Source: a virus. Taken from it: a DNA stretch of 11,571 nucleotides. Position 1 is the stretch's first letter. Each line of letters begins with the position of its first letter. Below the pieces are notes generated by a model. It was not told where the DNA came from. It ran no database searches and saw only the letters and a list, made by a program, of their open reading frames with translations. The position numbers and the translations under genes are program-made. The stretch lies in the UHGV virus genome UHGV-0116702, one strand, 5' to 3'. Shown here piece after piece: positions 1 to 11,571 of the stretch.

Positions 1-57
1 CGAATAGCTTCACTGTGTGGACGTGCTGCATGAACCGGGCGGCTGTCTAAAATCATC

Positions 58-1720
58 AAGGTCTAAATACACTATGAGGATGATTAGGGGTTGGTAGATG
101 ATTCGGATGAAGCATCCTCATTACAAGACCAACTATAGAACTACCTGTTAATAACAGGACAATATCAGGTGAATCCCTATTCAATTTAAAGGCATTTTCC
201 CAAGTATCTAAGCAGTTTTACACAGATTCTATGCAGTATCGGTATAGTCTCTTTTTACCCTAACTTATTGAAATATATAGAGAATCTGTGAAGTCTCTTT
301 TCAGGGAACTATGCAGGGTGTTAGTCGTTCCTCTCTCGACCCTTAGAAAAGTGCTATATACAGGACTATATAACGCTATTCATGCAGTTGGTCACCATAT
401 GTTACAGTTGCAAGAGATAACAATCAGCTATGTGAAAGTTAGGAAGTGATGGTTACAGTTGATTCGGTTAGTTCTAGGAATCAACCTCATAGTTCCTTCG
501 TAGTTCCTCTTAAAAAATCACTTACAGACACCTTAATATCTATACAGATTTCATGTAGAACACGATTAGTGCGTAAAACAGCTATTATGTTAAAAACGCA
601 CTGTATACGTATCAGTACTGATTTATAAGGGTTTTGTGTATTGGATGATAAGAGGCTATGCAGCACCTTGAGAGCATGTCTTCTAAGTCATTGATACATA
701 AGGTCACAGAAGTTTGTGTCTGTTACAGAGAAAACTGGATAGGATTTCACAGAACTATAAAATGTTACAGCTATTGATAGGTTAAATCTTCTTGATAGAT
801 GCTTTGAAGTGTGGTGAAGGTTTCTTGAGGTGGAGCTAAACAGATGCTATGAAGAAAGTCAATGATATTTTAACTGCTTTTGCAAAGGGGGTGCTATATC
901 GTGAATCTGGGGTACTTAACAGCCATCAATTGAGTGTAGATATTTTTTAAGATTATCGGTGAAGGGGAATGTAGAGGGGGGTACTACGATTTTTATAAAA
1001 ATTTTCAGACTCTGAAAAGTTGCTGTACAGATTTTGCACAATCTTACCAAGCCTCATAGAAAGCTCTGTAGCGAGTTTTAACCCCATTTTTAGGGGTAAC
1101 CTGTAGGTATGTACCACCCACCTTAAAATAAAGGGGTAAAATCGCTTAGAATGCGTTACAGAGCGTCTGAGAAGCTATATTCACAGATTTTACTAAAACC
1201 TCAGACTTTCTAAGTGGTCTTTTTAACAGGAGGGGTTCCCCTATGGTCACATATCCCCTCTCTCGCTTAGTGAGCTACACAGACCTAGAGAACATGCTCT
1301 GTAACGCCTTCACAAACATTGACTAAGGTCAACTTCATAAACTCAGAGTTAAGTTACCTTGAAAGATTCTACCAAGAAACTACACAGGTATTATTTAGTC
1401 TGACTGTGAAGAGATGTTTAACGGGAGGAAGAGAACCATGAAAACCGAAGGTAGGTTCTATCTTAACAGTGACTGTAAGAGATACCTGAAAAGATACTTA
1501 ACAGAACTACCAAGAAGAGAGGGAACGATAAAACCAGAGGTAGTGACCTTGTTAAGTAGGTCGTTTCAAAGTCTCTTAAAAGTCTGTTAAGTAAGGGCTA
1601 TGTGAACAATCTTACCATTTTGTCAATGCTTTTGTCTTTGACCTAAATCAATAAAATGTATCGTTTGATGTGCTTTTAAACAAAATAGCTAAAAAATCTT
1701 TTTAGAGGGGCGCTTCGCTT
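58..1720. other. ORF-poor, motif-dense non-coding region (candidate ori / ncRNA / regulatory hub)
   Basis: The six-frame track shows only one 60-aa ORF in 1.66 kb, and it has no RBS. Region contains the conserved box copies at 1063-1075, 1145-1171 and 1296-1308, recurring CTGTGAAGAG and TTACAG/TTAACAG motifs, and a 17-bp perfect palindrome TTTTCAGACTCTGAAAA at about 1003-1019. Confidence 0.5.
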
Positions 1721-2389
1721 GTGTCACATCCAATAATCCATATCGGTCGTTATCATGGTGGTTCTGATGACTGGCGTACACCGTATCGTCTATTTCATAA
1801 CCTGCATCGTGAGTATAGCTTCAGTCTAGATGGTGCTGCAACTGAGCATGACGCATTGTTGCCACGGTTCACCGATGATATTCACAATCAATCATGGGTT
1901 GGTGAACGGGTCTTCGTTAACCCGCCGTTTAGCATGGCTGAACAGTTCCTCCTAAAAGCCCCTGAAGCTGATGTGTGTGTATGTCTGGTTCCGCACAGGT
2001 CAAAGACAACTTACTGGCTTCGGTGTGTATATACAAACCCCTTCCTGCATGAGATTCGAACGTTACACCGAGCGGTTAAATACCTTCCACCAGCAGGAAA
2101 GAGAGGTGTTGTAGCGCGTTCACCGTTTGCAAGTTGCGTTCTGATATACAGGAACACACCCCGTAAACCGAAGGTTGAAGTTACCCAGACAATCTATTGT
2201 GGCGACACAATGCTTTTACTTGCCGTGGTTAACAGGGGTGGTTTACGTGGAAGACCTCATATACACGATGCACAGACGCTTGACAGGTTGATTAAAATGC
2301 ATGACCAAGGGCAATCCATCAAGAGCATCGCAGAATCGCTAAGAATGCCTCTAAGCACCACTTACAGGATTGTTCAAAGGTTGGGCTGA
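1721..2389 (+). CDS. Phage-type N6-adenine DNA methyltransferase (Dam-like) fused to a C-terminal resolvase/invertase-type HTH domain
   Basis: 222-aa ORF with GTG start 10 nt after a GAGGGG Shine-Dalgarno. N-terminal ~155 aa carry DWRTP, LDGAA and the WVGERVFVNPPF motif with the catalytic NPPF tetrapeptide, typical of the small phage Dam family. C-terminal ~60 aa (GRPHIHDAQTLDRLIKMHDQGQSIKSIAESLRMPLSTTYRIV) match the GRP arm plus helix-turn-helix pattern of Hin/resolvase DNA-binding domains. Confidence 0.7.
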   Translation: MSHPIIHIGRYHGGSDDWRTPYRLFHNLHREYSFSLDGAATEHDALLPRFTDDIHNQSWVGERVFVNPPFSMAEQFLLKAPEADVCVCLVPHRSKTTYWLRCVYTNPFLHEIRTLHRAVKYLPPAGKRGVVARSPFASCVLIYRNTPRKPKVEVTQTIYCGDTMLLLAVVNRGGLRGRPHIHDAQTLDRLIKMHDQGQSIKSIAESLRMPLSTTYRIVQRLG

Positions 2390-2428
2390 AATTCTCATAT
2401 AGAGCACTGATTACGAGAATGTTAAAGA

Positions 2429-2462
2429 GGCGATTTCCCCTTTCTGGGGTTATTCGCTTTTT
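2429..2462 (+). terminator. Candidate intrinsic terminator downstream of the methyltransferase gene
   Basis: GGCGATTTCCCCTTTCTGGGGTTATTCGC: nested stems GCGA/TCGC and CCCC/GGGG, followed by TTTTT at 2458-2462. Confidence 0.4.
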
Positions 2463-2597
2463 ACTGGAAGGGTTATTTTACAGAGGTTTTTCAAACCCCC
2501 TCAATAATAGAAACGAGCAACAAACGAAGAGCGAGAAATAAAATATTGAGACTGGTGAACGGGGTCTGTAAAGATTGTTTAAGGGGGCAGTTAAGAA

Positions 2598-2630
2598 GGT
2601 GGCTCTCCCTTTCTGGGGTTATCGCCTTGT
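2598..2630 (+). repeat. Second, degenerate copy of the CCTTTCTGGGGTTAT hairpin motif
   Basis: GGCTCTCCCTTTCTGGGGTTATCGCC shares an ~18-nt core with the hairpin at 2429-2462 but has a weaker T-tract (CTTGTATCTT). Confidence 0.35.
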
Positions 2631-2654
2631 ATCTTAGTGAGTCCAGGAAGTTCT

Positions 2655-2835
2655 CTGTGAAGAGTCTTGTCAGTCCTTTATATTGGGTGATTACAACTCA
2701 TTGAAAAATAAGTGTTTTTAGAATTTACTGTTAAGGTTACAGAGTTAACTGTGAAGAGACTTGTCAGTTCTCTATATATGGCTAATTACAACTAATTGAA
2801 AAATAAGAACTTTTAGAAATTACTGTCAGAGAGGT
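2655..2835. repeat. Two tandem ~94-bp direct repeats (about 85% identity over ~75 bp)
   Basis: Copy 1 starts CTGTGAAGAGTCTTGTCAGTCC at 2655; copy 2 starts CTGTGAAGAGACTTGTCAGTTC at 2749. Both contain ATTACAACT, ATTGAAAAATAAG and TTTTAGAA-TTACTGT. The CTGTGAAGAG head also occurs at 1403-1412 and in variant form at 286-295 and 1468-1477. Confidence 0.6.
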
Positions 2836-2946
2836 GAATACTTGATAGATACAGCTTTCCGGTTCTGTCAAGCTATTTTTTCATAGATAGCACAAAATGC
2901 TAAAGATACCCCTATACCATCTCGTACAGGGGATTTTGGAGGGAGT

Positions 2947-3123
2947 TTAACGGGGGTCTGTGTGGTCATTATCCTTAAGGTCAAGCGTCCATGTATGACC
3001 GAACAGTTTAAAGACAACAAGCACTCTGACAAGGACGTAACGAAGTAGCAGACCTGCAATAAGTCCAATACCTCCACCAGCCCATACATCAGGTGACCCC
3101 AGTTCAGGAGGGAGATTTACCAT
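2947..3123 (-). CDS. Hypothetical small membrane protein (58 aa, one predicted TM helix)
   Basis: ATG at 3123-3121 preceded by AAGGA with 6-nt spacing on the minus strand. Product MVNLPPELGSPDVWAGGGIGLIAGLLLRYVLVRVLVVFKLF... has a glycine-rich hydrophobic stretch. The track ORF 2947-3165 is the same frame extended to a TTG. Divergent from the 3421 operon. Confidence 0.3.
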   Translation of the reverse strand: MVNLPPELGSPDVWAGGGIGLIAGLLLRYVLVRVLVVFKLFGHTWTLDLKDNDHTDPR

Positions 3124-3136
3124 TAGTTTTCCTTGT

Positions 3137-3235
3137 AAGACGCTCTCAATCGCATTCTGACACAAAAAGTACCTGACCTTATGAGTTGACCTTAAGAGGC
3201 TGTTTAACTCGTTACAGAGCGATTGAAGAGGTCTG
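3137..3235. repeat. Inverted-repeat-bracketed element, copy 1 (conserved left and right arms, divergent interior)
   Basis: Left arm AGACGCTCTCAATCGCATTCT (3138-3158); right arm CTGTTTAACTCGTTACAGAGCGATTGAAGAGGTCTG (3200-3235). Arms are imperfect reverse complements sharing GCGATTGAG and GTCTG. Interior contains a doubled TGACCTTA. Confidence 0.55.
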
Positions 3236-3341
3236 TGTGCAATGCAATAACCATGTGACCACTCTCATAGCCACGCCTTTATATTTTACTCTCCCCATAG
3301 AACCATTATACCATAGATGTTAATAAATTGTTAAAAAATGC

Positions 3342-3370
3342 TTGACATTAGTCTTTGAAACTGCTAGTAT
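3342..3370 (+). promoter_or_regulatory. Candidate sigma70-type promoter for the 3421-4658 operon
   Basis: TTGACA (3342-3347), 17-nt spacer, TAGTAT (3365-3370); A/T-rich upstream tract TTAAAAAATG; about 50 nt upstream of the ATG at 3421. Confidence 0.45.
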
Positions 3371-3420
3371 TGTACATATAAGTTAACAGAGAATTAACAA
3401 TTATAAGGACTAGCTTATGA

Positions 3421-3900
3421 ATGAACGACAGAGAATTTAGAGCGATGCTTCAGGCATCAAGAGAACGCAAAGGCATTGACGAAGTAATTCGGGCAATTAC
3501 ACCGAGGAGTCGTTATATGCCAACCAGAAAGAGCACCCAGAACACTATTAAAAATTATTTGGCTAACTTCGACAGCTACGAGCAACTACCAAGTAAGCTT
3601 GATGATATTTTCATTGGATTCTGTAGAAGTGAAGGCCACCCGAAATACAACAAAAAACTATTTTATCTTCTAAAGAATCTTGACGAAATTAACTCAGCTA
3701 CCGTGACAAATTATCTTCAGCGACAAGCAACCAGACTTAGTTATGAATTACCAAGCGATAAATATTGTGCATTGCTTGCTGTAATGTGTGCAAAGCTAAT
3801 TGGTATTGTTGAACATCATATTGCCGTTGGTAATATTGAGCCAATGGAAAACGAGCAACCAGACTTTGAGTTTGACCCGTATATTTTGGAGGAATTTTAA
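3421..3900 (+). CDS. Hypothetical protein (159 aa) with acidic C-terminal tail
   Basis: ATG with AAGGA SD about 11 nt upstream; first gene after the candidate promoter; ends ...ENEQPDFEFDPYILEEF. No family recognised by eye. Confidence 0.6.
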   Translation: MNDREFRAMLQASRERKGIDEVIRAITPRSRYMPTRKSTQNTIKNYLANFDSYEQLPSKLDDIFIGFCRSEGHPKYNKKLFYLLKNLDEINSATVTNYLQRQATRLSYELPSDKYCALLAVMCAKLIGIVEHHIAVGNIEPMENEQPDFEFDPYILEEF

Positions 3901-3901
3901 A

Positions 3902-4183
3902 ATGAAAAACAAACACACATTAACCCGCATTTCAGAGGAAGCTTTTAACGAGCTTACCAGAATTAAACGAGCTACTAACTTGCCTCATCAAACTGTAATG
4001 CAGCTTGCAATTGCTAAAGAGGTTACTGAGTCGGATTTACTGAAATATCCAGTCTCTAAAGGTCGTAAACACATCCGAATTAGTCAGGACGCTTTAGCTA
4101 CTTTGAAGGCGCTTAACGGCTTTAAGATTGATATTGCCCGTCTATTGAGTCTTAAAATTCACAAGCTGTCTCTGGAGGTCTGA
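3902..4183 (+). CDS. Hypothetical small protein (93 aa), possibly DNA-binding
   Basis: ATG at 3902 lies 1 nt after the upstream stop, with GGAGGA about 12 nt upstream. Preferred over the track's TTG start at 3800, which overlaps the upstream gene. Two internally similar segments (TLTRISEEAFNELTRIK / KHIRISQDALATLKAL) suggest a repeated motif; the DNA-binding idea is speculative. Confidence 0.55.
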   Translation: MKNKHTLTRISEEAFNELTRIKRATNLPHQTVMQLAIAKEVTESDLLKYPVSKGRKHIRISQDALATLKALNGFKIDIARLLSLKIHKLSLEV

Positions 4184-4185
4184 TT

Positions 4186-4458
4186 ATGAAGCAATGGCGA
4201 GATGATATTAAACGGTTCTTTGCAACTTACTTCATGATTAATTACGAAACAGGAATGCTTGAATGGATTGATGGTGGAGAGGTTAAGACAAGAGATGACG
4301 CTTACGGTAATCCAATGATTCGTTATGGCACTCGTGATTATTATGTGAAATATGTCATCTGGTTTTTGCATCATGAAGTTCAGGCAACTAAAAAAATTAT
4401 CTTCAGGGATGGTAATAAAAGAAATTGCCACCCAAACAATTTACTACTGGAGATTTAA
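4186..4458 (+). CDS. HNH_3-family (homing-endonuclease-like) small protein, possibly catalytically degenerate
   Basis: 90 aa; ATG 8 nt after GGAGG and 3 nt after the upstream stop. C-terminal YYVKYVIWFLHHEVQATKKIIFRDGNKRNCHPNNL matches the HNH_3 pattern (YYVHRLV...VxHIDGNKxNNxxxNL), but by my manual alignment the HID histidine is Phe (IIFRDGNK). Confidence 0.55.
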   Translation: MKQWRDDIKRFFATYFMINYETGMLEWIDGGEVKTRDDAYGNPMIRYGTRDYYVKYVIWFLHHEVQATKKIIFRDGNKRNCHPNNLLLEI

Positions 4459-4658
4459 TGCTATGTATTAAATTCGAATATTTGACAGATAAAATGATTA
4501 AGCATGTATCAGACCTGCTCATCAAAGAAGATGGTTTCGGTGATGTTTGCAATCCAAAAGATATCTTCATTCACGCCACCAGCCCAAATGAAACACTGAA
4601 AACAGCAGTTACAGCGGAATGGTTTGAACGAAATAAAGTAGAATTAGGCTATTGGTAG
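4458..4658 (+). CDS. Hypothetical protein (66 aa)
   Basis: ATG overlaps the upstream stop (TAATG) with GGAG 5 nt upstream, indicating translational coupling. Track ORF 4425-4658 is the same frame from a TTG inside the HNH gene. Confidence 0.5.
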   Translation: MLCIKFEYLTDKMIKHVSDLLIKEDGFGDVCNPKDIFIHATSPNETLKTAVTAEWFERNKVELGYW

Positions 4659-4692
4659 TCCGAGACTTTAAGAGAAATTAGAAAAACAGCTT

Positions 4693-4816
4693 CTCAGACG
4701 CTCTCAATCGCATTCTAACGCAAAAAACTATCTTATTTTAGGGTGGGTAATACCACTGTACAGGCTACCCCTGAAAAAGACTGTTTAGCTCGTTACAGAG
4801 CGATTGAGGAGGTCTG
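4693..4816. repeat. Inverted-repeat-bracketed element, copy 2
   Basis: Left arm CAGACGCTCTCAATCGCATTCT (4695-4716); right arm CTGTTTAGCTCGTTACAGAGCGATTGAGGAGGTCTG (4781-4816). Arms are nearly identical to copy 1 (right arm 35/37) while the interior differs in sequence and length. Ends 22 nt before the ATG at 4838. Confidence 0.55.
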
Positions 4817-4837
4817 GTAAAAAGGAGATTTTAGGAA

Positions 4838-5161
4838 ATGAACAATTACGAATTACAGATTTTCGTTGATAGCGACACCGCTATGATGATTCAGGCTTTC
4901 ACTGATGTAGGTGTTAGCATTGACTTTGACAGGCTGTTAAGGCTAATGGCTGATAACTCAGAAACAATTGAAGATTTTATTCAGTCGGTGGAGTTTAACG
5001 AGCCTCGAATGATGCTACCAATTAAAGACAGCAACATGAAAAGATTGGTTATCGAGCAAACGAACAAATTCAGCATTAGCCCTGAAAGATATCTCAAGGC
5101 AGCTATAGCAATTTTGTACGCTGACAATATTCTGGTGACGGATTCTGTGAGGATTCACTAA
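4838..5161 (+). CDS. Hypothetical protein (107 aa)
   Basis: ATG 9 nt after AAAAAGGAG SD; no recognisable motif. Confidence 0.6.
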   Translation: MNNYELQIFVDSDTAMMIQAFTDVGVSIDFDRLLRLMADNSETIEDFIQSVEFNEPRMMLPIKDSNMKRLVIEQTNKFSISPERYLKAAIAILYADNILVTDSVRIH

Positions 5162-5238
5162 TGGGTTTAATAATTGCTTGGGCGTTGCTTGGCTTATTTG
5201 TTGGTTGCTGGGTAGGTAACACAGTAAATAAGAATTGA
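5161..5238 (+). CDS. Candidate 25-aa hydrophobic microprotein (MGLIIAWALLGLFVGCWVGNTVNKN)
   Basis: ATG overlaps the stop of the 107-aa gene (TAATG). Sequence is almost entirely one TM-like helix with a polar C-terminus. Too short for the ORF track; support is overlap geometry and composition only. Confidence 0.3.
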   Translation: MGLIIAWALLGLFVGCWVGNTVNKN

Positions 5239-5262
5239 TGTTACCAATCTGTTAAAAAGCTG

Positions 5263-5291
5263 TTGACAAATAACCTTGAGCATGACATAAT
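5263..5291 (+). promoter_or_regulatory. Candidate sigma70-type promoter
   Basis: TTGACA (5263-5268), 17-nt spacer, CATAAT (5286-5291). The track's 67-aa ORF 5263-5466 begins inside this -35 hexamer. Confidence 0.4.
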
Positions 5292-5481
5292 TGTATATAT
5301 GAGGATAGTCTTCTATCCGAAGTCTATGAGGAGAGCAATTCTCTCTTATTTTCTTTCAATAATCCGATGGATGGATATTCTGAGTTGGAAAGGTGCAATG
5401 CTTTTCGTCATGGCCTTTCAGTTTAGTCTGAGAGGCTATCTCAAAAAGTGCTTAATCATTCATTGAACCCTTTACAGCTTT

Positions 5482-5510
5482 GCCCTAACTCATGATTAGG
5501 GCTTTCTTTA
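5482..5510 (+). terminator. Candidate intrinsic terminator
   Basis: GCCCTAA-CTCATGA-TTAGGGC perfect 7-bp stem followed by TTTCTTTA. Confidence 0.45.
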
Positions 5511-5579
5511 AGAGTTTTTAAACAGAGCTTTTAAAGAAAGTTTTTCCTGAAACTTCGTTAACGTTAAAGCAAACCTTCA

Positions 5580-5613
5580 AAGCCCTTCACAGATTATGTT
5601 TAGGGCTTTTCTT
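5580..5613 (+). terminator. Second candidate terminator hairpin (related stem)
   Basis: AAGCCCT - 15-nt loop - AGGGCTT followed by TTTCTT; shares the AGGGCTTT(T)CTT tail with the hairpin at 5482-5510. Confidence 0.4.
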
Positions 5614-5708
5614 AATAGAGCATCTTTAATAAATCGTTAAGTCATCTTCTAAGTGTATTGGCGTTGAAGGTGCTCTATTAAGAAATAACCACTTAGAGGA
5701 AAATTATA

Positions 5709-6419
5709 ATGACAAACGATTTATATATTAACGGTAAAAAGGTTGATAGCTTCGGTGACTGGTCGCCACAGACTGAACATCCAGCTATCACTATCCAGCG
5801 TAAAGAACATGATGAAAGAATTGCACTTGAGCAAGAAATCCGAATGTCACCAAAGGTAATTACCTTTGTAGCTCCTGAGCCTCAAGAGATGCCTGATATT
5901 TGCAAAACTCAAGCATTACTTGAGCTTGAGCGTGAATATTACCCACTGCTGAAAGCACAAAGAATTAAACTTGATATTGCTTACGACAATGTGAAGAACT
6001 TTGAAGAGACTGAAAAGCCAACTGATTTTGATATTGAAGTGGAAATTAGACAAAACCCATTCGTATATTACTCAGTTGAGGATAATGATGGTTTTGGTAC
6101 AGCAAGAGAGAATATCTCAAAAGTTCTTCAAAACATCCCTGAAGGATTCCGTTTAATTGATGTTAGACCAGCTTCACGCGGTACAGGTTCATATATTTTA
6201 CTGTCTGATAAAACAGATGAAGAGATTTGTCAGTTAGCTGAAAAGAATCTACTTGAGCGTCATAGCAAAAAATTAAACAGATTTAAGCAAGAACTTGCTA
6301 ACCAGCTTCAGGCTATGAAAGACCTTATTTCTGCATATGAAACGCAGAAGAAGGTTGCTATGCAGGCTGATATTGAGCAGTTAGTGAAGATTTCTCAGAA
6401 ATACGCAAAGGCACTTTGA
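5709..6419 (+). CDS. Hypothetical protein (236 aa), acidic with helical C-terminal region
   Basis: ATG about 10 nt after AGAGGA SD; long uninterrupted ORF; no family recognised by eye. Confidence 0.65.
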   Translation: MTNDLYINGKKVDSFGDWSPQTEHPAITIQRKEHDERIALEQEIRMSPKVITFVAPEPQEMPDICKTQALLELEREYYPLLKAQRIKLDIAYDNVKNFEETEKPTDFDIEVEIRQNPFVYYSVEDNDGFGTARENISKVLQNIPEGFRLIDVRPASRGTGSYILLSDKTDEEICQLAEKNLLERHSKKLNRFKQELANQLQAMKDLISAYETQKKVAMQADIEQLVKISQKYAKAL

Positions 6420-6444
6420 CTATGAATTAAAAAGGAGGTGATGA

Positions 6445-6648
6445 ATGTTTGATTTAACGGAACGCTATGAACTTATTAAAGCAATTAGCGAGAGATTGAA
6501 AGAACAACCCAACAAACCAAAACGAATCAAATCATCCACCTCTAAACAAAATAACAGAATCAGAAAAATTGCTAAATGGTGTCTGGATAGATTACCAAGT
6601 GATTGTCAGATTGTCGGTGAAGATGGCAATTATTATCTGATTAGGTAA
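6445..6648 (+). CDS. Hypothetical small basic protein (67 aa)
   Basis: ATG 5 nt after AAAAAGGAGG SD; lysine/arginine-rich centre (KPKRIKSSTSKQNNRIRKIAKW). Confidence 0.55.
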   Translation: MFDLTERYELIKAISERLKEQPNKPKRIKSSTSKQNNRIRKIAKWCLDRLPSDCQIVGEDGNYYLIR

Positions 6649-6673
6649 AGAATTGGTTGGGTGAAAATCTACG

Positions 6674-6714
6674 GGAGAGATTATCGAGTGACATCGGTAG
6701 TTTCTCCTTTTTTT
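6674..6714 (+). terminator. Candidate intrinsic terminator
   Basis: GGAGAGA (6674-6680) pairs with TTTCTCC (6701-6707) with one G-U pair, then T7 (6708-6714). The 20-nt loop is long, so confidence is moderate. Confidence 0.4.
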
Positions 6715-6736
6715 GTATGTGTGCTACATGAAATCT

Positions 6737-6787
6737 GTAAAGCTAATATCCACACTGAAAAATAGAATTTACGTAGCTCACGCTTAA
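6737..6787 (+). repeat. Direct repeat A (51 bp, 38-bp perfect core) immediately upstream of the tape-measure gene
   Basis: GTAAAGCTAATATCCACACTGAAAAATAGAATTTACGTAGCTCACGCTTAA. Core 6750-6787 is identical to 9024-9061. Contains a -10-like TAGAAT with no good -35. Confidence 0.8.
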
Positions 6788-6804
6788 AGAGGTGAAAAAT
6801 ATGA

Positions 6805-8985
6805 ATGAGCAAATTCACAGTTGATAGTTTTATCGTTGAACTAGGCTTCAATGAAAACGTTATTAAGGGCTTGCAAAGAGTTGAAAAGGCAGCTTTGCAG
6901 TCAGCACAAAGAATTGAACGTAATTTGAATAGAGCGTTTAAGGTCGATACCAAGCAACTTGACAGCAACCTGACAAGTTCTTTAGGGCAACTTGAAAGGA
7001 AGTTTAATAAGACCTTTGACAAGATTGAACAGAGAGCAAGAAATACTAAAGCTTTCCAGTTTACCACCAGATTTAATGACACTGTTAATCCTCCAAAACA
7101 ACCGAGACAGCCACGAATTAGCGGCAACAGAGCAATCACAGCAGCGCATAGCGTGAATATGTCTAAGCTTGGTGATATTAATCCGCTGATGGCTAAAATG
7201 TTTAAAGCACAGTATTACAGCTTAAGCGGTAAGGCTGGTAATATTGGAAGTGAAAAGTTTAACGCTGAACTTGCAAAATTAAATCAATCTCTTCGTGAAA
7301 CGTTGAATAAACTCAGGTCACAGACAAAGACCACCAGCATTAACAATACAAGCGACGCATTTAATAATCTTGCAAGCAATGCAATCAAGTTATCTGGTGC
7401 ATTTTACTCTGTGATGGGTGCTCTTAACGCTTACAAGGCCATTATGAATGCAGGTCTTAAACGAGATTCCGCACAGAGAGCCGCTAAGTTTGTACTTGGT
7501 GATAAAGCATCTGAAGCTGAGGTATTTATTCGAAATTTAGCAGACAAGACAGGTCTTAATATCTCTGAAGGGCTATCAAGCTACGCTAAGTTTGCAGCAG
7601 GTGCTCAGGGTTCTATGTCACAGGAACAGACACAGGAGCTATTTGGTAATGCAACGGCTATGAGTCGCTTAATGGGGCTTTCTAACGATGAGCTAAACGG
7701 CATTTTGAAAGCATTTGAGCAGATGGCGAGCAAGGGCAAGATTCAGGCTGAAGAGCTTCGTGGACAGTTAGGTGACCGTATGGCTGGTGCATTTAAGCTA
7801 TTCGCTGAAGCATTGGGTATGACTGCTACAGAGCTTGATAAAGCGATGAAAGACGGGAAGATTTTAAGTAGTGATACTCTCCCTAAAGTCGCTAAACAGA
7901 TGGGCTTGATGATTGATAAAGCGGGTGGCTGGGCTGAAGTCGCTAAGAGCACTCAGACAGCTTTAGGGAAACTGGCTAACAACTGGGATGATACGATGGT
8001 GAAAATCTTCTCAGGTTCACAGGATGAGCTAAACGGCTTCTTATCCAGCCTGAGTAACCTGCTTAGTGAAATGGGGATGAGTTCATCTATCGCTGGTGAT
8101 GCTATCGGTGGACTTATCGACATGCTTAAAGCTGGTGTGGATGACATCCGTATCTTTAACAATCACCTTGAAGGCTGGATTCTACAGACTAAGAAGTTCT
8201 ATTACAGCCTTGATGACACTAAACGAAAACTACTTGATGAAGTCGGTGATGGTTTTATCAACTTCGTCAAAGGTCTTGCTATAGCGTTATCTGCAAAGAC
8301 ACTATTCAGTGCTGCTACAGGGGTTATAAACCTGACAAGAGCAATCACAACGTTAGGTACAAGAGCTAATCAGGTTGCTGGTCAGGTAGCTACTGGTAAA
8401 GGTGGTGGAAAACTGAAAGGTGTAGCTGGTGGTGTAGGTAGTGCTCTTGCAATTGGTTATGCTGATGACGGTTATGAAACAGCGTTAGCATTAGCTTCAA
8501 TGATTCCACAAATCAGAGGCGTCACTCTTGGTTTATATGCATTGAAGAAAGCACTGGATTTTATGAATCAGGAAGTAGTCAAAAACGCTAATATGCATCC
8601 ATCTGGGGTAGGTGTGGGTAGTGACTTTAATCCCGTGTATTCTGGTGACCCTAATAAACCGAATATGATTAACGAAGGATGGGGTAGAATTTTTAGTTCA
8701 ATGGGTGAATTGTTTAACAATGCCACAATGAATATTGCAAGATTCAATCATCCAGAGTTAAACAACATTAAGCAAGATTCAGCATTAACGAGTGCAGATA
8801 TTCAGAGTCTGAGGGATGAAATCTCTGCTTTAAGTAAGCGTATTCAGGAGCCTGTGAAAGTTTCCTTGGGTGGTGAAGTTGCCATTAAACCAGATGAAAC
8901 CAGCTTTATGACCTTTAGCAGTAATATCTACGACCAATATGCAGAAGCTACGCTATTAAGTTCATCATTCCCAGAAGATGATTGA
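6805..8985 (+). CDS. Phage tail tape-measure-domain protein (726 aa)
   Basis: N-terminal coiled-coil-like segment, then LNGILKAFEQMASKGKIQAEELRGQLGDRMAGAFKLFAEALGMTATELDKAMKDGKILSSDTLPKVAKQMG, which matches the conserved tape-measure core. Downstream there are glycine-rich hydrophobic stretches (ATGKGGGKLKGVAGGVGSALAIGYA). SD AAGAGG is about 13 nt upstream. Confidence 0.7.
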   Translation: MSKFTVDSFIVELGFNENVIKGLQRVEKAALQSAQRIERNLNRAFKVDTKQLDSNLTSSLGQLERKFNKTFDKIEQRARNTKAFQFTTRFNDTVNPPKQPRQPRISGNRAITAAHSVNMSKLGDINPLMAKMFKAQYYSLSGKAGNIGSEKFNAELAKLNQSLRETLNKLRSQTKTTSINNTSDAFNNLASNAIKLSGAFYSVMGALNAYKAIMNAGLKRDSAQRAAKFVLGDKASEAEVFIRNLADKTGLNISEGLSSYAKFAAGAQGSMSQEQTQELFGNATAMSRLMGLSNDELNGILKAFEQMASKGKIQAEELRGQLGDRMAGAFKLFAEALGMTATELDKAMKDGKILSSDTLPKVAKQMGLMIDKAGGWAEVAKSTQTALGKLANNWDDTMVKIFSGSQDELNGFLSSLSNLLSEMGMSSSIAGDAIGGLIDMLKAGVDDIRIFNNHLEGWILQTKKFYYSLDDTKRKLLDEVGDGFINFVKGLAIALSAKTLFSAATGVINLTRAITTLGTRANQVAGQVATGKGGGKLKGVAGGVGSALAIGYADDGYETALALASMIPQIRGVTLGLYALKKALDFMNQEVVKNANMHPSGVGVGSDFNPVYSGDPNKPNMINEGWGRIFSSMGELFNNATMNIARFNHPELNNIKQDSALTSADIQSLRDEISALSKRIQEPVKVSLGGEVAIKPDETSFMTFSSNIYDQYAEATLLSSSFPEDD

Positions 8986-9010
8986 TTTAACGGTGTTCTA
9001 CGTGAATAAA

Positions 9011-9061
9011 GCAAAGTTAATACCCACACTGAAAAATAGAATTTACGTAGCTCACGCTTAA
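9011..9061 (+). repeat. Direct repeat B (copy of repeat A) immediately downstream of the tape-measure gene
   Basis: GCAAAGTTAATACCCACACTGAAAAATAGAATTTACGTAGCTCACGCTTAA; 48/51 identical to 6737-6787, offset 2274 bp; lies about 80 nt upstream of the ATG at 9142. Confidence 0.8.
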
Positions 9062-9141
9062 CAGAGAAAATACTTATATATCAAAGGCTTGGTTAAAAAT
9101 GATTAAAATACACTAAGCCTTTGAAATCAAAGGAGAATTTA

Positions 9142-9930
9142 ATGATTTTTAGCAATCAAATCCGCTACAGTGGCAAAGATGGCGTTTACTTCCACTTAAG
9201 AGATAATGTAGATGCCTTCTTAACCTTATCAGCAACTGAGAACATGGAATTTGATAGCCCTATGCAGGTGACTACACAGAACATGCAATCAGGGCAAACC
9301 GTCACAGATAATGTGCAAAGAGCACCCAGAACAATCACTATTAGCGGTGTCGTTGTAGTTGGCTATGAAGGGAGCTTATTATTAACTCGTCAGGGTCAAT
9401 TAGTAGAGAACTTCATCGACACTCTTGAAAACTGGCGTGACCAGAAACAAATTATTTCGGTCATCTGTAAAGACGGAATTAAAATTGATGATTCCATTAT
9501 CACAAGTTTTAAAGCCTCTAAAGATGTTGGAATTTCAAACGGATTAAGAATCCAACTAACTTTTCAGGAAATTAACTTCAGAGCTGTTGTGGGGCAGACT
9601 GATATCTCGGCTGCAACTGGAAAAGCCGCGACTACGAACGATGGTGGTGTGACCAGTAAGAAGAATGCAGGTAACGTGACCACTGAACGCAATAACGCGC
9701 CTATGCTATCGTGCAAAGAGCTAATGAGTATTAGCGATGTATCCGGTTACGCTCCAGCTATCAGAAATGATATTCTCGATGCTCAGATTAAGTGTAATAA
9801 GGCTTGGAAGCTGGACTATTCAGACTTAACAGAAGCTGAAAAAACCAACGTCACCAATGCTAATAGTAACGCTGGTCGGGTAGCTTCAAAGCTTAAAAAG
9901 TACTCAGTGAACCCTCACAAAAAATACTAA
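9142..9930 (+). CDS. Hypothetical protein (262 aa); possibly tail-associated on positional grounds only
   Basis: ATG 6 nt after AAGGAG SD; the track ORF from 9121 is the same frame from an upstream TTG. Sits directly after the tape-measure gene, where siphophages usually encode the distal tail protein, but I see no diagnostic motif. Confidence 0.55.
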
Positions 9931-11450
9931 ATCTCTACTACATCAACATCTATTAAACCCCTCTCAGTGACTTCAGAAAGCGACTGTATAGCCTCTGTAA
10001 CGTCCTCTGAGGGGTTTTCTGTTATTGATAAGGTGATTGACTTACCATTGTGAAAAGTTACTTTACAGCGACGTTTAGCAGTATTTAAAACGACCTCTTT
10101 AACAGCACTTTTGATTATCAGTTGTGCTTCAATTCTCCCCGCCTTTGTAGTCAAGTCACAATCAGACAAACACCCCACATCAATAGATTTAAGGCGTTGT
10201 GTCTCCTTCTCGATATCCGCATCAACCTGTGATAGCTCACCTTTTAACTGCTTTAGTTTGATGGTAATAGCTGACAAATCTTCAATTTCAAGTGATAGCT
10301 GTACCAGCTTTTCAATATTGCTTGAGATGTGTTCACGGTGTAGCCTCAACATATCTATGGTATTCGTCGTATCGCTATCAAATCGGTCAAGACGAGATAG
10401 CAGAGTAAGCAATGTACCATCGGTTTGCTTACGTGAAAGTCCTTTAGCACTACAACGGTTTTCATTACGAAGAGGACAACGATAAATCCCGTTTCTTGTA
10501 TCACTAAAGCCTGTGATAATCAGAGCATGACCACATTCAGAACAACGGATAACACCTTTAAAGAGATTCACACTCAATGGTTTATCTGAAACAGACCTCT
10601 TTCCATAACGAGAATGTGATAGTTGTTGAACTTTGTAGAATGTTGTTTCATCTATAATTGCAGGATAATAACCAGCTATCTCCTCACAGCCTTTAGGTGT
10701 GAAGTAACCAATTACAGAGCGATTCTTCAGAAGGTCTTGTACTGAGGTTTGACCAAACTTACCAGCTTTATATTGGTTAAGCGTCTGGTGACCTTCATCA
10801 TTAAGAGTCCTGACAATCGCCCAGATAGATTTGCCCTCTAACCGTAGCTGAAAGCACCTCTTCACAGTTTCTACCTTCTCAGGTATTACAGAGAAGCTTT
10901 TACGGTCATCATTCAGCCTTAACCATGCAGGACAACGCCTAGAAATCTTGATACCAGCTTTAGCAGCTTCTTTCTTTGCATCCCATGCAGCTTGTATACG
11001 CTCAGCCTTACGTAATGATTCCTCATGCGCCCTTTGCATTATCAGAATGCTTTTAATCAGGGATAACGGGTCTCTTAAGCTTTCCTTTGTGTAATGTTCA
11101 CCATCGGACAAGGTGACTACATCTACACCAGAGCGAAGAATGTTTCGTAATAGCTCACTTGCTCGGTCTACGGCCTGACGTGACAAACGGTCTAAACTCT
11201 CGATTAGTAGTGTATCACCAGCTTTAACAAGCCCTTTCTCGATAGCGGTTAAAAAGTCACCTAAGCCACCTTTCAAGTGCTTACCAGTGAATCCACTCAC
11301 ACCTAAATCACGGAAGGATAAATCTTGGTCAAGGTAGTACTCAGGTTGAGCCTTAAGCCAGTCATTAACCATCTTAGACTGTCTGCGTAGTGAATCACCT
11401 CGGGATTGCTTCTCAGATGAAAACCTGATGTAAGAAATGGCACGTTTCAT
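9927..11450 (-). CDS. Large serine recombinase (integrase, 507 aa)
   Basis: N-terminal resolvase-type catalytic domain with the nucleophile motif YIRFSSEKQ and arginines in DRLSR; central recombinase region; Cys-rich zinc ribbon CSECGH...[11 protein letters not shown]; C-terminal coiled-coil-like segment. GAGGTG SD 4 nt before the ATG. Confidence 0.9.
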
Positions 11451-11476
11451 TGTTCACCTCAAAACTGATGCCCTAG

Positions 11477-11505
11477 ATTGTATCGTTTTAGATGGTGTAT
11501 TTAAA
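11477..11505 (-). promoter_or_regulatory. Candidate promoter for the recombinase gene
   Basis: On the minus strand: TTTAAA, 17-nt spacer, TACAAT, about 25 nt upstream of the recombinase ATG. The -35 is weak. Confidence 0.3.
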
Positions 11506-11571
11506 CGTGTCTAATAAAAATCACCCGATTAACGCCGCGCTGATGTAAACCGCGATTAAGCGTTTGTTCCT

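Follow-up and report, generated by a model that had tools for sequence, protein, structure and literature searches.

The stretch of DNA analyzed here, UHGV virus genome UHGV-0116702 (11,571 nucleotides, referred to below as the window), is an island of about 11.47 kb (span 56-11516) lying inside the Escherichia coli gene yecE, in the yecN/yecD interval. Two of its open reading frames (ORFs), ORF236 and ORF67, stand on the plus strand ahead of genes for a tape-measure protein (TMP) and a tail tube initiator, both of them homologous to tail genes of Felix O1-like virulent myoviruses. In all islands examined the four genes travel together, regardless of the recombinase that moves them. The features of this module, together with the integrase gene at the right end of the island, are as follows:

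5263..5291, plus strand: sigma-70 promoter close to consensus, TTGACA-17-CATAAT plus a TG extension; at 11 of 12 positions it is the window's best promoter match
5298..5708, plus strand: structured leader of about 400 nt (RNA fold z-score -6.1; 0 of 100 shuffles fold as well)
5709..6419, plus strand: ORF236, an island-specific, mildly acidic protein of 236 amino acids (aa), recognized by its homologues, its selection pattern and an AlphaFold2 model with a predicted local distance difference test score (pLDDT) of 80
6445..6648, plus strand: ORF67, an island-specific small basic protein of 67 aa, recognized in the same way (AlphaFold2 pLDDT 76)
6673..6708, plus strand: strong intrinsic terminator with a 15-bp stem and a T-run, between ORF67 and the TMP gene
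6719..6787, plus strand: 69-nt element, copy 1, located before the TMP gene and with hairpin arms GCTACGTGAA...TTTACGTAGC; found at this place in only some islands
6805..8985, plus strand: TMP, 726 aa (Pfam TMP_3, 1.2e-22; PHROG 4036, 5e-95), a mosaic homologue of the Felix O1-like TMP (735 aa)
8993..9061, plus strand: 69-nt element, copy 2, located before the tube-initiator gene and present here in every island for which the region was recovered
9121..9930, plus strand: tube initiator (Dit-like 'baseplate' protein), 269 aa; overall identity to the homologue in garuso, a Felix-like phage, 73%
9927..11450, minus strand: large serine recombinase, 507 aa, the island integrase (Resolvase, Recombinase and Zn_ribbon_recom domains; PHROG 95 integrase, 4e-77)

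The sequence-only reading of this DNA had called ORF236 and ORF67 as an acidic and a basic protein, and both are indeed real genes. Each one is preceded by a Shine-Dalgarno sequence (GAGGAAAATTATAATG for ORF236 and AAGGAGGTGATGAATG for ORF67), has homologues, and is under purifying selection, the median ratio of nonsynonymous to synonymous substitutions (dN/dS) across island variants being 0.33 for ORF236, 0.35 for ORF67 and 0.34 for TMP. The charges agree as well, ORF236 being mildly acidic (isoelectric point 5.15, charge about -8) and ORF67 basic (isoelectric point 9.64, charge about +5.5). Homologues of ORF236 make up 3,101 protein clusters, which come almost entirely from E. coli, Shigella, Salmonella and Citrobacter, and those of ORF67 make up 53 clusters, all from E. 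coli. In its model, ORF236 has an N-terminal hairpin followed by a long coiled coil in which helices 66-100 and 170-218 run antiparallel, with a conserved small alpha/beta domain at the tip (about residues 106-166) that holds the motifs NDGFGT and IPEGFRLI. ORF67 is predicted to consist of an amphipathic helix (residues 4-19), a disordered linker rich in lysine and arginine (20-38) and a small beta-rich C-terminal domain, the latter being a conserved mini-domain of the form KWCLD.LPSD.QIVGEDGNYYL.R.

No functional homologue of either protein was found in Pfam, PHROGs, NCBIfam, PADLOC (a version dated 2023) or the sequence profiles of the PDB, so that the check by profile and fold comparison that had been proposed for both returned no recognizable homology in the databases searched, the PDB included. 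A tblastn search of 50,697 phage genomes, with E values up to 1, gave no homologue, and an exhaustive phmmer search of 1.84 billion representatives, together with a profile search, matched island homologues only. Neither protein is similar to any protein of garuso, including those of the protease/scaffold region. Most homologues of ORF236 carry the name transposase at NCBI, an identity rejected here, as there is no Pfam or NCBIfam match at E values up to 1 and the model is a coiled coil; the label (for instance on P0001-P0120) is probably a propagated misannotation. A relationship of ORF236 to TMP, or mimicry of it, was also considered and discarded: a 29-nt repeat is common to both genes, without similarity between the proteins. 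As for the spacing of the pair, an extra gene of 102 aa without Pfam match lies between ORF236 and ORF67 in one island (L013, 9720-10028), and wider gaps in three others (L052, L060 and L066) may mark an insertion point for accessory genes.

The two genes that follow the pair have an unambiguous affinity. Nucleotide identity to Felix O1-like phages (Felixounavirus) reaches 95% (positions 9157-9671) and, within part of the TMP gene, about 90%; judging from these sequences the island TMP and tube initiator are recent copies from such lytic myoviruses. The TMP is a mosaic: conservation with the phage protein covers the N-terminal 45 or so residues, the centre and the C-terminal tip, and the remainder is divergent. 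In the tube initiator, the tube-like N-terminal domain is nearly identical to its Felix-like homologue, and the C-terminal extension of about 100 aa is divergent. The identity of this gene follows from the cryo-electron microscopy of the Felix-like phage Bas63, where the gene after TMP encodes the tube initiator, gp18, a tube-like protein with a C-terminal extension of about 100 residues into the baseplate (PMC12609058). Covariation, calculated as the Spearman rho of pairwise divergences over 33 distinct islands, couples the two captured proteins segment by segment: the C-terminal extension of the tube initiator covaries with TMP residues 421-600 (rho 0.74) and 191-420 (rho 0.55), and its tube-like domain with TMP residues 601-726 (rho 0.51), while the physically intervening segments show no such coupling. 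This pattern points to two sets of segments, interleaved with each other, that interact or are inherited together.

The homology to phage begins 22 nt upstream of the TMP start codon, and the rest of the window has no match in the 85.8 kb garuso genome outside the TMP/tube-initiator region. In garuso, two chaperone genes (garuso_116/117) lie directly upstream of the TMP gene; since the homology starts just 22 nt before the TMP start, the phage chaperone genes were not captured. This arrangement brings up the explanation that ORF236 and ORF67 themselves load TMP, as true though highly diverged tail assembly chaperones of the kind known from lambda (gpG/gpGT). The pair fills, on the same strand, the two slots upstream of TMP where Felix-like phages keep two chaperone genes, ORF236 is acidic like the first protein of the Felix-like chaperone pair, and six of seven residues agree between INGKKVD and INGKKVN, found at the same N-terminal position in the Felix chaperone. 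That last match is nonetheless weak (E = 0.15 in a single pairwise comparison), hhalign gives the ORF236/Felix chaperone alignment a probability of 0.1%, and BLASTP against Felix-like chaperones was negative; Pfam, PHROG, NCBIfam and the PDB gave no match either. The -1 frameshift that would fuse G and T products is impossible, as stop codons close both alternative frames before the ORF67 ATG and the reading frames do not overlap (ORF236 ends at 6419, ahead of the ORF67 start at 6445). ORF236 is a coiled-coil model of 236 aa, compared with a chaperone fold of about 130 aa, and neither model matches that fold as represented by, for example, HK97 2OB9 and PLE1 5IR0. Some islands even carry the additional 102-aa gene between the two. 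In contrast to gpG/gpGT pairs and to garuso_116/117, moreover, the pair is followed by a terminator before the TMP gene and does not covary with TMP. A chaperone identity is thus very unlikely, and the expectation that neither protein would look like a tail tube protein or a chaperone is upheld by profile, sequence and fold comparisons alike.

The same reading had placed the pair in the tail module of a siphophage, a setting that had to be abandoned. The window is a yecE island whose only virion genes, by Pfam and PHROG, are the Felix O1-like TMP and tube initiator; scans of the window proteins against the same two databases found no capsid, portal, terminase, sheath or tube gene. The ends of the island are defined by the following features, obtained by aligning the attL, attR and attP junctions:

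1-48: 3' fragment of the host gene yecE, left of the attL core
49..55, no strand assigned: attL crossover core AAAATCA, aligned with attR and with the attP junction of an excised form (L045)
11517..11523, no strand assigned: attR crossover core AAAATCA, with the yecE 5' fragment next to it

Pieces of yecE flank the island in two further copies (L002 and L003) as well. The excised form, a metagenome contig of 11,473 bp (ERZ1090866 NODE-760, L045), is a circular permutation of an island, in which an attP junction at 8515-8521 joins window position 11523 at the recombinase end to window position 49 at the left end. The alignment shows the common core AAAATCA, and attP has the expected imperfect dyad. 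As the contig is permuted and its termini are contiguous, save for a Nextera adapter at the contig start, it is by its structure an excised circle or a concatemer, and the island family is, on the same grounds, mobile. A different junction occurs in the metagenome contig L058 (10,636 bp), where the recombinase gene is cut at about residue 232 and joined to attL-side sequence at 8103-8105; this connection of window 10757 to window 49 represents either a rearranged island or an assembly chimera.

Of 5,426 complete E. coli genomes, at least 404 (about 7%) contain members of the family according to blastn with the ORF236-ORF67 region as query; all copies are chromosomal, with no more than three per genome. 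Several types of integrase and attachment site are represented (yecE, wrbA and others). Despite this diversity, all islands examined have the same fixed order, which runs from an ORF of about 100 aa through ORF236, ORF67 and TMP to the tube initiator, with the recombinase on the opposite strand. The order is kept even where ORF236 is merely 24-37% identical, with other types of recombinase (55% and 68% identical), and in an island adjacent to wrbA in strain 94EC, where the left arm is a different one and the recombinase is just 35% identical. No paper on this island or on these proteins was found in a literature search that was incomplete and hence is no proof of novelty; the family is apparently undescribed.

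This independence from the integration module bears directly on a function that had been suggested for ORF67, that of the recombination directionality factor that would switch the large serine recombinase to attL x attR excision. Directionality factors of serine integrases are heterogeneous, do not form one family and are hard to recognize, and ORF67 is a small, basic, functionally unassigned protein on an element that integrates by means of such a recombinase. An excised form of the island exists, which means that some directionality factor must act. However, in strain 94EC an ORF67 that is 100% identical to that of the window, next to an ORF236 that is 98% identical, coexists with the 35%-identical recombinase and an attachment site at wrbA. 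Conversely, recombinases of the yecE type (91-96% identical) occur with both classes of ORF67, about 90% and about 46-55% identical to the one in the window. Class 1 is found with the yecE type seven times and once each with the 37% and 68% types, and class 2 with the yecE type 13 times and with 36-38% types six times, so that the divergences of ORF67 and recombinase are uncorrelated (rho -0.01). ORF67 is instead always linked to ORF236 and the TMP gene, and no excisionase or DNA-binding family or fold matched it in Pfam, NCBIfam, the PDB or a comparison of predicted folds. SprB of SPbeta and Orf7 of TP901-1, two directionality factors, are like ORF67 small proteins of elements with large serine integrases, ORF67 being basic; the difference is that ORF67 stays with the TMP module and is passed on irrespective of the type of recombinase. 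In the case of the PLE satellites (elements resembling phage-inducible chromosomal islands), the work on PexA is reported to have shown that it is the helper phage, ICP1, that provides the directionality factor, which was counted as a further point against this role. The proposal is consequently disfavoured, and it is very unlikely that ORF67 directs excision.

ORF236 and ORF67 each fall into deep allele classes that reassort freely, and their divergences are uncorrelated with each other (rho 0.01-0.09). Island L010, for example, has an ORF236 that is 90% identical to that of the window, an ORF67 that is 46% identical and a TMP that is 97% identical, and island L003 combines an ORF236 at 24% with a TMP at 98%. 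These data are relevant to the idea of a toxin-antitoxin or abortive-infection module, in which the acidic partner would neutralize a small basic toxin. An adjacent acidic and basic pair in one transcription unit on a mobile element is what such a module would look like. Yet ORF67 alleles swap against a near-identical ORF236, as in L010, which is unlike the behaviour of a cognate binding pair, other genes can sit between the two, and PADLOC, Pfam and NCBIfam gave no match, making this an explanation with hardly any likelihood.

The transcriptional layout around the pair is elaborate. The -35 element of its promoter, TTGACA, does not vary among the 21 aligned islands, even in the most distant of them (L031), and the -10 element is conserved in most and altered in three (L010, L030 and L031). 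In the leader that follows, three hairpins resemble terminators (5329-5347, 5482-5502 and 5583-5607); a further, long hairpin (5608-5685) lies shortly ahead of the ribosome-binding site of ORF236 and occurs in three sequence versions with the pairing kept. The leader could be an attenuated leader or could give rise to a terminated small RNA of about 210 nt. Behind ORF67, the terminator is present in all 14 island variants aligned there, in two versions that again keep the pairing. The pair had been described as lying immediately before the tape-measure gene, and this stands insofar as TMP is the next gene; the two are nevertheless 156 nt apart, and the terminator and the 69-nt element occupy the gap. 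In islands without the first copy of this element the TMP gene comes directly after the terminator, and expression of TMP would therefore rely on read-through from the ORF236-ORF67 unit. Such a layout would keep the ORF236-ORF67 module nearly silent until termination is relieved.

The 69-nt element has, besides its two copies, a partial inverted copy at 534-568. Exact matches to its 3' half were found in 16 contigs of the viral collection, and the eight that were cross-checked belong to the island family; none has the length of a Felix-like genome. The possibility that it represents a Felix-like promoter was dropped, as blastn gave no match in phages and the cross-checked exact matches lie in contigs of the island family. 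With regard to the leader as a small RNA acting on Felix-like transcripts, a duplex-energy scan of the whole garuso genome brought up no clear target: none of 5,714 windows stood out beyond z = -4.5, and the duplexes were longer than is realistic. A boxB-like hairpin (GATAGNNNNCTATC) was rejected as a repeated antitermination site because it occurs once in the window, no more than expected by chance, and no known RNA family from Rfam was detected anywhere in the window. Just before the promoter of the ORF236 unit, there is one further small ORF:

5161..5238, plus strand: mini-ORF of 25 aa, hydrophobic (MGLIIAWALLGLFVGCWVGNTVNKN), over the stop codon of a 107-aa ORF and conserved in the 21-island alignment

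Its product, MGLIIAWALLGLFVGCWVGNTVNKN, could be a small membrane peptide.

Given this density of signals (the invariant -35 promoter, the three terminator-like hairpins, the conserved terminator and the 69-nt repeats), the pair might serve to regulate expression of the island itself, with ORF67 as a nucleic-acid-binding antiterminator or activator on the hairpins or 69-nt elements and ORF236 as its sensor or partner. The Lys/Arg-rich disordered segment of ORF67 would fit such a role. Against it, the class of ORF67 does not track the version of the terminator, of the long leader hairpin or of the 69-nt element, the protein has no fold match and no helix-turn-helix, ribbon-helix-helix or arginine-rich-helix signature, and its gene lies downstream of the very leader terminators that it would have to overcome. 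A regulatory function of the pair is accordingly judged improbable.

The closest known system is, by analogy, that of the PLE satellites of Vibrio cholerae, which use a large serine recombinase and are parasites of the lytic myovirus ICP1 (PMC12987554). PLEs have genes of their own for a TMP, a tail assembly chaperone and a baseplate hub protein (tmp-tac-bhuB) and build chimeric tails (PMC12987554, 2026), the benefit and mechanism of which are still unclear according to the same work. In addition, Rta from PLE11, a protein of 80 aa without recognizable homologues, blocks assembly of the helper tail by way of the helper TMP (PMC12987554). The yecE island resembles these elements in being a small integrative chromosomal island with a large serine recombinase at one end, in opposite orientation, without capsid, terminase or most tail genes. 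It likewise has mostly orphan genes and long non-coding stretches, its own TMP and a baseplate-proximal tail protein, both related to those of lytic myoviruses, and small orphan proteins in or near the tail cluster; excision and circularization are indicated by L045. There are also differences. The island has no protein of the chaperone fold and carries a tube initiator instead of the hub protein BhuB. Its TMP has about the length of that of the helper (726 versus 735 aa) and is in parts about 90% identical in nucleotide sequence, in contrast to a protein identity of about 20% for the PLE TMP. Finally, its host is E. coli and its presumed helper is Felix O1-like.

Satellites may take over a helper at steps other than the tail, and the pair could act in capsid size determination or scaffolding (as P4 Sid and PLE TcaP do), in redirection of packaging or in replication of the island. 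P4 provides a comparison, being, as is proposed for the island, an integrative myovirus satellite of E. coli, with an element size that is about the same (11.5 kb); it differs in its integrase type and in having no tail genes, and ORF236 is unlike its proteins Sid and Psu. The island (11.47 kb) is nearly as large as P4 (11.6 kb) and would suit small capsids, ORF236 is elongated, acidic and helical in the model and close to Sid in size (244 aa), and no island gene has been assigned a capsid, packaging or replication function by Pfam, PHROGs or NCBIfam. Comparison by hhalign, with a probability below 1% for ORF236 against Sid and Psu, nonetheless led to rejection of a capsid protein of the Sid/Psu kind, and the pair has no local similarity to garuso proteins, those of the protease/scaffold region among them. 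Candidates for replication exist in the left arm, in the form of non-coding repeats and, in variant L012, of an HTH_36/DnaD_N-like protein that is a candidate replication gene, and the pair is linked to the TMP and tube initiator instead. Such a role away from the tail is therefore unlikely.

Manipulation of helper tail assembly, whether by blocking it or by standing in for its chaperones, is tentatively regarded as the most likely function of ORF236 and ORF67, because of their linkage to TMP and tube initiator, their independence from the integration module, their absence from phages, the fast turnover of their alleles and the precedent of the PLEs. The island would be a PLE-like integrative satellite, or an anti-phage island, directed against Felix O1-like virulent myoviruses, which are the presumed helpers. 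ORF236 and ORF67 would be co-transcribed as the front half of its tail module, which reads promoter, leader, ORF236, ORF67, terminator, TMP and tube initiator, and the pair would help to steer baseplate-hub and tube initiation to the island's own TMP and tube initiator. Two routes can be envisaged. In the first one, the pair would block the helper TMP or its chaperones in the manner of Rta; in the second one, it would use an unrelated fold to stand in for the G/GT chaperones, which were not captured by the island. The predicted coiled-coil hairpin with a globular tip of ORF236 resembles holdases such as prefoldin and Skp, in overall form only. Since neither protein has a homologue in phages or in garuso, both would be inventions of the satellite and not phage parts, and the divergent, reassorting classes together with a dN/dS like that of TMP fit proteins facing a co-evolving phage partner.

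Several points weigh against an action on the tail. There is no homology or fold match of either protein to tail proteins or to chaperone structures in the PDB, and the conserved terminator between ORF67 and the TMP gene makes separate expression possible. Their position beside the TMP gene could merely mirror the layout of a late operon. Moreover, neither ORF236 nor ORF67 covaries with any segment of TMP or the tube initiator (|rho| <= 0.33); as the same analysis does find the coupling between TMP and tube initiator, this result argues against an allele-specific chaperone-client pair. Because of this lack of covariation with the island's own TMP, and because the promoter has a host-type consensus, an Rta-like action on a helper protein fits slightly better than an allele-specific chaperone role. 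The outcome would be conceptually the same as that of the tail assembly inhibition (Tai) systems of phage-inducible chromosomal islands (PICIs), prophages and P4-like satellites, also proteins of mobile elements, which stop tail assembly so that tailless particles are released (PMC11364771). The elements that carry Tai differ in having no TMP and tube initiator of their own.

Taken as a whole, the locus may be a tail-hijacking satellite of the PLE kind, with an orphan pair as the conserved partners of the captured tail genes. A fuller picture, put forward with more reserve as a possibility, is that of new satellites in E. coli, Shigella, Salmonella and Citrobacter that build chimeric Felix O1-like tails, ORF236 and ORF67 being fold-unrelated hijack factors expressed from a constitutive promoter kept in check by terminators. 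For satellites of strictly lytic phages, detailed knowledge comes only from the PLEs of V. cholerae; if true, the yecE island would provide a second independent system, in a genetically tractable host, in which to study how and why satellites rewire tail assembly. Felix O1-like phages are, furthermore, used in phage therapy and biocontrol. The mechanism would be sought first in ORF236 and ORF67, the only other genes locked to the captured tail genes. The analysis also corrects the transposase label of the databases and removes a directionality-factor candidate that was plausible but unsupported.

The rest of the island holds several elements outside the tail module. The window encodes an N6-adenine methyltransferase of the Dam type that is fused to a helix-turn-helix domain of the resolvase type (1721-2389), as well as an HNH endonuclease of 90 aa (4186-4458), and the endonuclease is 100% identical in protein sequence across several otherwise divergent islands. 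A repeat of about 100 nt with a regulatory appearance precedes two gene blocks (3132-3235 and 4690-4816) and has an inverted copy at 1146-1207, and a 95-bp tandem repeat in 1.8 copies (2655-2826) lies in a non-coding stretch of 1 kb after the methyltransferase gene; both repeats are candidate operators or origin repeats.

The long non-coding left arm is also enriched in YTGTWARR motifs such as CTGTTAAG, with 24 copies observed versus 12.2 +/- 3.5 expected. Five of them are clustered within 130 bp (window 1462-1591), and others are found at 915, 1222, 2566, 2728 and elsewhere. The same motif family fills an intergenic repeat region of 1.2 kb in garuso (L035, at 49.3-50.5 kb), and the left-arm motifs may be a mimicry of a phage origin or regulatory site.

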